A stretch of DNA of 64,000 nt from a virus (IMGVR_UViG_3300049846_001486:1-64000), one strand, 5' to 3'; counted from the first letter of the stretch, positions 38,901-43,276 are shown. Translations and numbers: made by a program. The notes: generated by a model not told the origin, from the letters alone.

Positions 38901-41900
38901 TGGAACAATATGATTTCGAATCCCCGGAAAATATTGTAGAAGCCATGTATCAGATTTATGATACTTTCAGTATAGATGATGTAAATTATATATTCTTTAA
39001 CATGCTTATGGACTATTTTAGTTTGAAGAAAGAGAGCAAAGACATATTCAAGACTTCTTGGGTAGCGTTGCAAGTTTCTCAAAATATAAAACCGTATACG
39101 GATTCTCAAACAGACACTATTAAATTGGAAGCTGGCGGTAAAGCCTTCTTCGGTGAATTGTCTTCTGCGGAAGCAATAGATGTTCTTCCAATTACGGACT
39201 ATCTATTGTATTTGTTGAGCGACGGAACAATCGTATATTCACTACACGACGGTTTCACGGAAACTATTGTATTAGCCCAGAACCCGCCAAGAATAGCAGG
39301 TAGCGGAGCAAGAACCGATGTATGGACAGACGGAACCTACATTTATACCACAAGTATCAACGGTGGTTTGGATGTGTACTACTATAATGGTACAAATTTC
39401 ATATTGATTGGTGGCAATACAACTCCGGGTAACCACTATGGCGTAGTAGGATTTAACCCAATCTTGGTAGTATCCGATACCGGAGAAGGCTTGATTGCTT
39501 ATGAATTTGACGGTATAGAATTAGTCAAAATAGCAACCTGTGGAGATGTTACGACCAATGTTAAAGCAGTATGCATTCATAATGGATACATAGCAACTTG
39601 TGGATATGATAGGGTTGATATTTGGCAATATACCGGATACTCATTACACCATGTAACTTTCTTACAGGGTCTGACTGGCGGTGCGGATGTTATATCCATC
39701 GCATCTGACGGCGAATATCTGTACACGGGAAGCAACAATACAACAAAGGTGCAGGTATTCTCATTTGATGGCAGCATAATCCAACAAGTGTATACTGACC
39801 CTACCATAAATTCTTCTCCGGCAATAGCCGCTGGTGGCGGTAATGTATTCTATGGTGGTATAGGTTTGAAGGTGTATAGATTTAATGGCTCGTCTTTGGT
39901 ATTACAAGATTCTATTGATGGGGTAGTTATTGACGGGTCGTTGATGTATTCTCATGATTCCAAGAGACTATATTCTTCAGATTTAGGAGTTTTTAATTTC
40001 ACTACTGGCCGCTTAGAACAGATAACAGATGTTCCTGTTCCAGTATCTCAGTTAAATTCTGGTGATGTAAGTTTGGCTGGAGCTATAAATTTACCTAAAC
40101 CAAGTCCAACTCCAACTAGAACAGTAACACCTACTATTACCGTATCTCCGACAGTTACCCCAACGAATACCCCAACTAATACAGTAACTCCTACCAATAC
40201 TAGAACAGCTAGCACAACCCCTACACCAACTAATACGACGACCCCAACGACTACCCCGACCCCAACGGTTACCCAAACAGCATCCGTGACACCAACTCCA
40301 TCAATAACCCCAACATCTACACCAACGGCAACTGTAACTCCAACTAACACGCCGACTAATACTCAAACCGCAACTCCAACGAATACGGTAACCCCAACGA
40401 ATACTCCAACGGCTACTTCAACAGTAACTCCAACGAATACGGTAACCCCAACTTACACAGTAACTCCAACGAATACACCAACCGCGTCTGTTACCCCAAC
40501 AATAACTCCAACCAACACGGTTACCCCAACTAATACTGTAACTCCTACTAATACTGTAACCCCGACAGTCACTTCTACAGCCACAGTAACCCCCACGACA
40601 GCCGCAAGCCCTACTGTTACCCCAACTAATACACCGACTGCATCGGTTACTCCTACTGTTACCCCAACTAATACACCGACTGCATCGGTTACTCCTACTT
40701 CAACAGTAACTCCAACGAATACGGTTACTCCGTCGAATACTGTAACCCCAACGAATACCCCAACGGTTACCCCTACTTCAACTGTTACCCCAACTAACAC
40801 AGTTACCCCAACAAATACCGTTACACCAACGAATACCCCAACAAACACGGTTACCCCAACGAATACTGTTACTCCAACGAATACCCCAACAAACACGGTT
40901 ACCCCAACGAATACTGTTACTCCAACTAACACCGTTACTCCAACGAATACGATAACCCCAACCAATACTCCAACGAATACAGTAACTCCAACTAACACCG
41001 TTACTCCAACGAATACCCCAACATCAAGTGTAACTCCGACTGTAACCCCTACAAGTACGGTTACCCCAACGAATACTGTTACTCCAACGAATACCGTTAC
41101 ACCAACCAATACTCCAACAAGTTCATTAACCCCTACGGTCACTCCAACGAATACCGTTACTCCAACGAATACGGCTACTCCGACTTATACTCCTACTTCA
41201 ACCGTCACTCCAACAAACACGGTTACCCCAACAAATACACCGACAGCATCAGTTACCCCAACGAATACTGTAACTCCAACGAATACCGTTACTCCAACAA
41301 ACACGGTTACCCCAACGAATACGGCAACGGCATCAGTTACGCCGACTAATACTCCAACTAATACAGTAACTCCTACTAACACAGGAACGCCCGGAGCCAC
41401 ACCGACTGTAACGCCGACAAACACCCCAACCGTTACCCCAACAAATACTATTACTCCAACTTATACTATTACCCCAACAAATACCCCAACCCCAACGAAT
41501 ACCCCAACGAATACTGTAACTCCAACTAATACAGTTACCCCAACAAATACACCGACAGCATCAGTTACCCCAACGAATACCCCAACAAATACCGTTACCC
41601 CAACGAACACAGTTACCCCAACAAATACACCGACAGCATCAGTTACCCCAACGAATACCCCAACAAATACTGTAACTCCAACTAATACCGCAACACCAAC
41701 GAATACAGCCACATCTACAGTAACCCCAACGGCATCTGTTACTCCTTCGGTAACTCCAACAAATACAGTAACTCCAACAAATACCGTTACCCCAACGAAT
41801 ACGGCTACACCAACTATAACACCTACAGTAACCCCAACTAACACAGTTACCCCGACTTATACGGTTACCCCAACGAATACAGTAACTTCGTCCATTACTC

Positions 41901-43276
41901 CAACGGCAACGGTCACCCCTACGGTAACCCCAACTAACACAGTTACCCCGACTTATACGGTCACCCCAACGAATACTGTTACTCCAACAGTTACTCCTAC
42001 ACCTTCTGTAACCCCAACAGAAACACCAACGAATACACCAACTCCGACGAATACTGTTACCCCAACAAATACTCCAACGGCTTCGTTGACTCCAACTAAT
42101 ACTCCAACCAACACGGTTACCCCAACTAATACTGTAACCCCAACGAATACCGCAACCGCATCTGTTACCCCAACGAATACCCCAACCAATACCTTTACTC
42201 CAACAAATACGGTAACACCAACTTATACAGTAACACCTACCTTTACGCCTACTGCTTCTGAAACACCAACGAATACACCAACGAATACTGTTACTCCGAC
42301 GAATACATTAACTCCTACTGTAACACCAACCCCTTCGGTTACTCCAACAGAAAGTCCTACTAATACTGTTACCCCAACTAATACGGTAACACCGACTTAT
42401 ACAGTTACTCCAACGAATACTCCTACTTCAACAGTAACTCCAACTAACACCGTTACCCCGACGAATACTGAGACCCCAACGGTAACTCCGACCGTTACAC
42501 CAACGAATACGCCAACAGTAACACCTACAAGCACGATAACTCCAACGAATACTCCAACAACAACGCCAACAAATACATTAACTCCGACGAATACAGCAAC
42601 CCCAACGATAACTCCGACGAGGACACCAACTACTACTAGAACTCCAACTAGAACTCCAACTATAACTCCAACAAATACAGCGACCCCAACGGTTACACCA
42701 ACCTTTACACCAACAAACACCGTTACGCCAACAATCACACCAACAGTCACACCAACAAGTACGGTTACACCAACCTTTACACCAACAAACACCGTTACGC
42801 CAACAATCACACCAACAGTCACACCAACAAGTACGGTTACACCAACAGTCACACCAACAGTCACACCAACGAATACGGCAACTCCAACCGTAACCCCAAC
42901 CGTTACTCCAACGAATACGGTAACTCCAACCCGTACAGTAACTCCGTCTCCAGCACCTCTAACTGTGTCTGTTGCCGATGCCGGAAATGATGCTTATACT
43001 TCATGTTCGACAGCCGTATGTGGCGGTTCATGTACTTCGAGCGACACAATAACTGCAACTCCTTCTGGGGGAACAGCGCCATATTCTTATTCTTGGACTA
43101 AAACTGCTGGTGTTGGTGCTATAACTTCTGGTTCAACATCAGCTACTTGTACGGTGTCTAGAACTGCCGGTGCTTCTATATTAACTGGTACATTTAAATG
43201 TACGGTTACGGATAATGTTGGCGGTTCGGCAAATGCAAGCATAGTAATGACCTTTGAACACGCTGACGGATGTTAA
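29903..43276 (+). CDS. giant baseplate-associated structural/adhesin protein (4457 aa): large N-terminal body (gp7 position), beta-propeller-like repeats, a roughly 950-aa Thr/Pro hexapeptide-repeat mucin-like domain, and a C-terminal Cys-containing Ig/SprB-repeat-like domain
   Basis: A single uninterrupted frame of 13.4 kb with a GTG start and GGAAG RBS, sitting where gp7 sits in T4 (after gp6). Residues about 3400-4350 are TPTNTV-type repeats. The final roughly 105 aa contain four Cys and a [14 protein letters not shown] motif. Confidence 0.7.
40100..42950 (+). repeat. coding tandem repeat of about 2.85 kb with an 18-nt period encoding (T-P-T-N-T-V)n and variants
   Basis: Roughly 150 imperfect copies of ACnCCAACGAATACnGTn. 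The reverse strand therefore yields artefactual VGVTV ORFs in the six-frame track. Confidence 0.9.

Follow-up and report, generated by a model that had tools for sequence, protein, structure and literature searches.

The 64,000-nucleotide (nt) stretch of DNA analysed here (IMGVR_UViG_3300049846_001486:1-64000, the window) belongs to an uncultured T4-type jumbo myovirus that is XacN1-like and has about 38% GC. At positions 29903-43276 of its plus strand, on which all window features lie unless stated otherwise, it contains a giant open reading frame (ORF) of 4,457 amino acids (aa) with a GTG start and a TAA TAA stop. Near the end of this ORF lies a 965-aa tract in which Thr or Ser is found at nearly every second position. 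The ORF product matches PHROG 10938, 'virion structural protein' (E 3.7e-83), and its homologues in more distant Rak2-like phages are also annotated as virion structural proteins. With a 2,993-aa query (aa 401-3393), it was 42.5% identical to XacN1 ORF325 over 89% of the query. Two full-length orthologues from other metagenomes, P0125 and P0127, likewise begin with V-S/G-N-SDY. A Pfam search with the whole 4,457-aa protein returned no family.

The sequence suggests a domain order of conserved body, beta-propeller-like domain, tract and PKD/Ig-like C-terminus. The body (29903-39136) ends at the motif FKTSWVALQ, and its BLASTP homology to XacN1 ORF325 (3,313 aa) stops at aa 3078. The beta-propeller-like domain of about 315 aa (39137-40081, aa 3079-3393) was recognised from its phmmer relatives. 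No homologue of this region was found by word-indexed search or by a scan of IMG/VR, and exhaustive phmmer alone gave the orthologues. Two of its 238 hits were collinear orthologues (P0125 aa 3100-3399, P0127 aa 3087-3381), and the others were multi-stretch matches to proteins with FG-GAP_2 or LVIVD blades. The single-sequence AlphaFold2 (AF2) model of the region was all-beta at low confidence, with a predicted local distance difference test (pLDDT) score of 40.5. The C-terminal domain of about 99 aa (42977-43273) matched K319L-like_PKD of Pfam at 29.1 bits, above the cut-off of 27, and SprB repeat at 27.8 bits, slightly under the cut-off of 28. It also matched the decoration-protein chains 8zvi_a and 5lxk_A of the PDB (E 2e-4 to 3e-4; common motif GGTxPYxYxWTK) and a Hoc-like head decoration family of PHROG (E 1.4e-5). 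In the single-sequence AF2 model of the C-terminal 138 aa (pLDDT 43) there were three strands, and the last 39 residues of the tract were coil. The tract is therefore flanked, within one polypeptide, by a recognisable propeller-like domain upstream and a PKD/Ig-like domain downstream.

The genes on both sides place the ORF in the baseplate module. Directly upstream is a gp6-like baseplate wedge subunit (26942-29842; PHROG 10646, E 2.8e-292), and the order of gp6-like gene and giant ORF is also found in XacN1 (ORF325) and in the metagenome contigs L003 and L004. Directly downstream are a gp15-like sheath stabiliser (43299-44081) and the tail sheath (44147-46282), which is 55% identical to the XacN1 sheath; the PHROG matches of these two genes were 227, 11196 and 10581. 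The nearest cultured phages are Xanthomonas XacN1 and Xoo-sp13 and Stenotrophomonas CM1 and RAS14, with sheaths 54-55% identical.

The [Thr/Ser]-X tract itself occupies 40082-42976 (aa 3394-4358 of the giant ORF; bounds set by composition). An initial annotation, made from the window sequence alone, had described a coding tandem repeat of about 150 18-nt units with more than 50% Thr at 40100-42950. The coordinates were accurate to about 25 nt, and the coding repeat was borne out by the single open frame of the ORF and by Tandem Repeats Finder, which reported 55 overlapping arrays between 40112 and 42945 (matches 58-100%, scores up to 661) with periods of 12, 18, 30, 42, 48, 66, 78, 96 and 174 nt. 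All 965 codons of the coding frame are free of stops, compared with 8-140 stops in the other five frames. The residue counts are T 454, P 187, V 107, N 96, S 42 and A 33. Thr makes up 47.7% of the tract, Pro 19.4% and Ser 4.3%, so only Thr and Ser together exceed half (52%). In the 950 aa encoded by 40100-42950 there are 10 charged residues, two Gly and no Cys, Trp or Met. This dominance of Thr, Ser and Pro, with few charged or large hydrophobic residues, is the composition of Pro/Thr-rich (PT) interdomain linkers, and tandem repeats rich in Ser/Thr and Pro are those of mucin-type domains. The earlier description of a mucin-like Thr/Pro domain thus agrees with our results, and its position between folded domains is as for a spacer.

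The repeat unit was different from that described before. We counted 183 Pro-initiated units, comprising 92 hexapeptides, 73 tetrapeptides, 8 dipeptides, 7 decapeptides and 3 others, and the exact TPTNTV accounted for 45 of them. Four- and six-residue units are mixed irregularly, and there is no constant period of the G-X-Y kind or of a fixed solenoid turn. The true period is 2 aa: Thr or Ser is present at 472 of 476 alternate positions (447 T, 25 S; 99.2%), and one phase runs unbroken over 649 residues. The positions in between are mainly P (184), V (105) and N (95), the remainder being scattered. Because this alternation leaves a single N-x-S/T sequon in spite of the 96 Asn, N-glycosylation of the tract is unlikely.

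We then compared the peptide with the DNA that encodes it. Third bases of the Thr codons in the tract are near-random (T 137, A 115, C 101, G 94; 1.98 of 2 bits of entropy), which indicates that the conserved entity is the peptide and not the DNA. Consistently, the 45 identical TPTNTV units use 27 DNA versions, codon identity for the same residue one unit apart is 0.35 versus 0.356 by chance, and the mean DNA identity between units is about 60%. Synonymous sites are saturated while the hydroxy residue is kept at 99% of alternate positions; therefore most of the array is old and its alternate positions are held by purifying selection. Recent local duplications overlie this older layer. Near-exact local repeats were found with a period of 72 nt (2.4 copies, 96%) and of 42 nt (2.1 copies, 100%), the longest exact repeat is 86 nt (at 42689/42761), and the array contains 301 repeated 21-mers versus 18 ± 8 in synonymous-permuted controls. 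These data show that the array grows by local duplication. The excess of repeated k-mers over the controls also led us to reject the idea that the array had been recoded to avoid DNA repeats. The array had been called highly recombinogenic; the local near-exact duplications are in line with this, but the low DNA identity between units and the shortness of the exact repeats are not.

Comparison with orthologues showed how the tract behaves between lineages. P0125 (contig L003, 4,309 aa) and P0127 (L004, 3,419 aa) are 42-54% identical to the giant protein over the body and propeller, with 42-44% identity over aa 1-3398. The tract of P0125 is 441 aa long with Thr/Ser at 93% of alternate positions, and the residues in between are V, P, S, A and I instead of N; behind it come Laminin_G_3, a second PT stretch (a linker of 54 aa) and another domain of about 210 aa. 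P0127 has a PT stub of 18 aa and then a TAA; the gp15 gene starts 8 nt on and the gene order is as in the window. Collinear orthologues therefore carry tracts of 18, 441 and 965 aa that end in no domain, in a LamG domain plus a further domain, and in a PKD domain, respectively. The suggestion that the repeat could vary in length holds in this form, as a difference between lineages only 42-54% identical and not between isolates.

The body-end alignment was also scanned on metagenome contigs, which gave 42 loci, and the tail after FKTSWV was readable in 34 of them; with the window, L003, L004 and XacN1 there were 38 tails. The shortest tails have 16 aa (ten loci) and the longest, that of the window, has 1,403 aa, followed by the L003 tail (1,235 aa). 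About 25 of the 38 tails have a Thr/Ser/Pro tract at this junction; besides the three collinear orthologues, about 20 more have tracts of 23-262 aa, and in tails without the inserted propeller the tract begins 20-40 aa past the motif. The modules behind the tracts are mutually unrelated, including ConA-like/LamG, F5/8 type C (discoidin) and DUF5122 beta-propeller domains, small Cys/Glu-rich knots and others. As in a linker, the flanks are thus conserved whereas the tract differs freely from one orthologue to another in length and sequence. The tail of XacN1 ORF325 (tail at L005 9587-9742) has short PT linkers, each before a small motif, CG-G-DDR-xEDGEGRITEDGxCRIVE, present in two copies; the same motif also terminates the tails of L027, L035, P0002 and P0003. 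With its conserved anchor, a low-complexity stalk whose length is free, lectin-like tips that can be exchanged and, in some cases, complete loss of the tail, this pattern, judged from sequence, is what is expected of a distal adhesion or receptor-binding appendage rather than of a structural core element.

Similar tracts are found elsewhere. In L003, the gp15-like stabiliser (22955-24319, plus strand) continues in frame, uninterrupted by a stop, into a [TS]-x tract, which extends over at least 200 aa up to the end of the contig; mucin-like tracts thus sit on more than one virion protein in this clade. Tracts of the TPTNT(E/P/V) type, 100-250 aa long, gave 2,547 hits at E ≤ 1e-3 in metagenomic proteins (P0004-P0123 among them). 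Tracts of this type are widespread in uncultured large phages and for the most part lack annotation. On one 325-kb jumbo-phage-like contig from the Joint Genome Institute (JGI), two adjacent proteins have such tracts (L002 3017-9410).

In conclusion, the feature is real, coding and selected. It is an extreme form of the mucin-like Pro/Thr linker, unusually placed at the distal end of a giant protein of the baseplate module. We consider that it is probably a very long, uncharged and extended spacer, which tethers a PKD/Ig-like binding domain to the baseplate-anchored body and propeller. About 19% Pro and the near absence of core hydrophobics would hold the chain unfolded and extended. Polyproline-II geometry corresponds to about 0.31 nm per residue, which would give a contour length of about 300 nm; the true reach would depend on stiffness. 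The terminal domain, best read as a predicted swappable binding module, could thereby explore a large volume round the baseplate, and its first, reversible contact would be with a host or matrix glycan. Glycosylation of Thr/Ser, possibly followed by carbamoylation, would stiffen and protect the stalk. The great length may itself be adaptive. Several observations weigh on the other side. The single-sequence AF2 runs (pLDDT 40-43) were uninformative on conformation, relatives manage with about 18-260 aa or with no tail at all, which bears on whether length matters, and the window is a single assembly.

The ability of relatives to work with short tracts or none leads to a serious rival: the length may have no function, and a short PT linker expanded by slippage and unequal recombination may simply have been tolerated, the 965 aa being a neutral or transient extreme of such runaway expansion. 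The recent local duplications, and a mixture of 4-, 6- and 10-aa units as expected from misaligned duplication of ACN-NNN units, are consistent with this. However, the mostly saturated synonymous sites under a 99% conserved Thr/Ser pattern point to an old array under purifying selection, and the frame has been maintained over 2.9 kb with an intact domain behind it. We regard functionless length as unlikely.

Another way to use a strict 2-residue period is to fold it. With beta-branched T, V and I, Thr-X segments could form strands with one all-Thr face, and the strands of a trimer or of adjacent wedges could together build a beta-helix or a cross-beta fibre like the shaft of a tail fibre; XacN1 was reported to have neither recognisable tail-fibre genes nor visible fibres, so some other protein must serve. 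The composition argues against such a shaft. Pro accounts for 19% of residues and recurs irregularly after 4 or 6 residues (the 73 tetra- and 92 hexapeptides) with no constant solenoid period, and Gly, large hydrophobics and charges are nearly lacking, so a regular fibrous fold is disfavoured. Moreover, orthologous tracts differ freely in length and in their X residues, and the AF2 model of the last 39 tract residues, which is weak evidence, has no secondary structure. A folded fibrous shaft is thus improbable.

An artefact, in which the array was expanded or chimeric or two genes were joined by a misassembled repeat, is more improbable still. The sequence comes from one metagenomic assembly only, and the collections searched did not contain another copy: megablast of 36000-44500 against 50,697 phage records gave no match, and an exact-match search of viral and metagenome contigs with a 38-mer from the Ig-like domain gave none. 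Related contigs do break within such tracts (L052, L054, L059, L061 and the end of L003). On the other hand, no exact repeat of 99 nt or longer was found in the array, which makes gross assembly collapse less likely, although this does not replace long reads. In addition, 965 stop-free codons are followed in the same frame by a recognisable domain, and the independent orthologue P0125 has the same order of body, propeller, tract and domain in one ORF.

Finally, the mirror-image VGVTV ORFs noticed in the initial annotation do exist, four of them (VGVTVFV...) being open for 100-229 aa on the minus strand (40048-42864), but there is practically no chance that they are genes: they are confined to the repeat, and homologous domains before and after it fix the reading frame of the plus-strand ORF; they start with GTG, purely mirror the ACN-CCA-ACN pattern and lie in a frame interrupted by 8 stops where the plus frame has none. 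Similar minus-strand mirror ORFs were miscalled as genes in L003, where tblastn identified the plus-strand gp15 and tract. We judge the window ORFs to be by-products, without biological meaning, of a repeat whose mirror frame is stop-poor.

The stalk may also be modified. A homologue of GT60-family glycosyltransferases is encoded at 59368-60747 (459 aa; Pfam PF11397, 'GlcNAc'), and it matches PF11397 with E 1e-73 and 249.3 bits (cut-off 21) over profile positions 1-351 of 352. PF11397 corresponds by annotation to CAZy GT60 (PMC6418280). The enzymes of GT60 are polypeptide alpha-GlcNAc transferases; they initiate O-glycosylation of the mucin type in Dictyostelium and Trypanosoma cruzi or, in some cases, modify Skp1 in the cytoplasm (PMC8724618). 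A DxH motif in place of DxD is the signature of GT27/GT60, and the family has so far been reported from prokaryotes and protists only (PMC7185993). In the window protein this motif is LQLDSHHRF (D116-S-H118), and it is invariant in four phage homologues. Among the 50,697 phage records, the gene was found only in XacN1 (ORF334), Xoo-sp13, CM1 and RAS14, at 59-63% identity, which exceeds that of the sheath. No solved structure was matched for the window GT60 protein by sequence or by a four-sequence profile. The next gene encodes a 789-aa carbamoyltransferase of the NodU/CmcH type (60751-63120; Pfam Carbam_trans_N and Carbam_trans_C), which scores 182 bits with NCBIfam NodU, well under the equivalog cut-off of 1000. 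The two genes also adjoin in XacN1 (where the carbamoyltransferase is ORF333), Xoo-sp13, L009, L027 and L062, and they are no more than 3 kb apart in L010, L014 and L015. In a distant IMG/VR contig (L024 3-1417), an ORF terminating in a pure (PT)n run of 79 aa or more is followed, about 300 nt downstream, by a GT60 homologue of 28% identity.

Two or more glycoprotein bands of XacN1 virions are Schiff-positive, and two phage glycosyltransferases (GTs) were suspected by the authors (PMC5852040). We found T-x tracts of about 250 aa in XacN1 ORF369 and of 196 aa in ORF350. ORF369 (594 aa; L006 943-2727, minus strand) combines a propeller-like domain, the T-x tract and a Cys-rich end, and it lies directly upstream of gp15. 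Homology of its propeller to that of the window was not detectable (E 0.06), and ORF350, tested as a tail-tube homologue with an added tract, is not one. The more distant relative RsoM2USA has no GT60; its giant protein stops 17 aa past the motif, and there is no tract in its 47-kb structural region. This comparison of GT60 with tracts covers only RsoM2USA and XacN1, where 64 kb hold at least 3 tracts.

The initial annotation had regarded the tract as an O-glycosylation substrate. The GT60/PF11397 homologue in the window and the Schiff-positive XacN1 virions give this idea some substance, and we propose tentatively, at somewhat less than an even chance, that Thr/Ser residues of the tract are O-glycosylated in the cytoplasm by the phage GT60-family enzyme and possibly then carbamoylated. 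A wider proposal is more doubtful. XacN1-like phages might carry a self-encoded, cytoplasmic, mucin-type O-glycosylation system, in which a GT60 HexNAc-transferase, together with a NodU-like carbamoyltransferase that perhaps modifies the sugar, would decorate [Thr/Ser]-X stalks. As parts of this same doubtful proposal, its targets would be the stalks on baseplate, gp15-associated and other virion proteins, and the window stalk, with about 1,000 residues and up to about 470 acceptor sites, would be its extreme case.

A number of points speak against glycosylation of the stalk. The GT60/carbamoyltransferase pair is located 16 kb downstream of the tract among DNA polymerase, 5'-3' exonuclease/RNase H-like and NUDIX genes, a replication-gene setting that would also suit a DNA- or nucleotide-modifying role. 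GT60 is kept in XacN1-like phages regardless of tract length. Nor must a TPTNT-type tract require GT60, given how common such tracts are among metagenomic proteins. The Schiff-positive bands of XacN1 have not been assigned to proteins, and a second GT exists in this phage (ORF328). Moreover, to our knowledge, the prokaryotic members of GT60 are uncharacterised.

Several known systems resemble parts of this arrangement. The 'PT box' linkers of Cellulomonas fimi CenA and Cex are extended and about 20-100 aa long; their length differs from one homologue to the next, and they are O-glycosylated in their native host. Like them, the phage tract is a low-complexity segment dominated by Thr and Pro that joins two independently folded domains. 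It differs in its 965 aa, in the strict alternation of Thr with P, V or N in between, and in its carrier, which is a phage baseplate-module protein and not a secreted enzyme. Searches of the literature for Thr-Pro linkers in phage tail fibres gave nothing specific. The mucin-type Pro/Thr/Ser (PTS) domains of protists such as Dictyostelium share the TPT-x-TPT style, the growth by tandem repeats and a GT60 in the same genome (PMC8724618). The Thr/Pro tract of T. cruzi gp72 (PTVTPTPPLTPTPTPEVTPTPTVTP...) is strikingly similar in sequence to the phage tract, but it has phosphate-linked glycans and so is no demonstrated GT60 substrate (PMC3630849). Unlike in the protist mucin domains, glycosylation of the phage tract is hypothetical, with a putative glycan and putative acceptors. 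As a bacterial virus has no secretory pathway, any such modification would have to be cytoplasmic, as with the GlcNAc-transferase of Dictyostelium Skp1.

The tip and the proposed modification also have counterparts in phages. With its PKD/Ig profile matches, its matches to the 5lxk and 8zvi chains and those to Hoc-like PHROGs, the C-terminal domain resembles T4 Hoc and the decoration protein of these structures, which we take to be T5 pb10. Ig-like domains displayed on phages are thought to adhere weakly to carbohydrates. In contrast to Hoc and the decoration protein, the window domain, whose binding is a prediction, is carried not by the capsid but by a 965-aa stalk of a baseplate-module protein. 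XacN1 belongs to the same clade as the window phage and shares with it the GT60 and carbamoyltransferase pair, a propeller-like domain followed by a tract (ORF369) and virion glycoproteins. It differs in that the cassette forms the separate 594-aa ORF369 and the tracts are 4-20 times shorter. In mycobacteriophages, the C-termini of capsid and tail-tube proteins are reported targets of glycosylation, by GT families that differ from GT60. This phage-encoded virion glycosylation (Freeman et al. 2023, cited in PMC12582341) is a precedent for phage glycosyltransferases that act on virion proteins, though it concerns a different host group and involves no mucin-like tract on the kilobase scale.

The window also encodes a portal, a prohead protease, a gp25-like wedge protein, a tube and a family B DNA polymerase. 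A protein with a TnsA-like endonuclease N-terminal domain (49042-49512) lies between the tube and the next late gene and is kept at the equivalent place in L004; at the corresponding place XacN1 has ORF348, annotated 'head completion protein', and this correspondence is positional only. On the minus strand (1216-4419), three neighbouring genes encode an SPFH/Band 7 protein (1216-2664), a peptide deformylase (2727-3371) and a PTH2-type peptidyl-tRNA hydrolase (3919-4419), the latter two being translation-related auxiliary genes in a phage. ARAGORN predicted a single tRNA, with anticodon CTA, at 1043-1118 (minus strand), labelled 'tRNA-Pyl', which could possibly be an amber suppressor. Stops of the 45 large ORFs in the window were TAA in 41 cases, TAG in 4 and TGA in none; the lack of TGA is a hint that the phage or its host may use stop codons in an unusual way.

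Pro/Thr linkers and phage Ig-like domains are each familiar, and a baseplate-module protein whose stalk is about 1,000 residues long, with every alternate one a hydroxy residue, is an extreme form. It bears on how jumbo phages without classical tail fibres initially find their hosts. With tails of 16-1,403 aa and interchangeable lectin-like tips, this one junction resembles a natural experiment on reach and on the exchange of modules. The GT60 link makes a vague idea of glycosylation testable in cultured XacN1, where the enzyme (ORF334), the tract proteins (ORF369, ORF350 and ORF325) and the observed glycoprotein bands are all at hand. If the proposal is true, it would give a first function to a non-eukaryotic (prokaryotic or viral) GT60 and would reveal mucin-type glycosylation outside eukaryotes, in the form of a 'mucin' made by a bacteriophage, with relevance to phage immunogenicity, stability and adhesion engineering.

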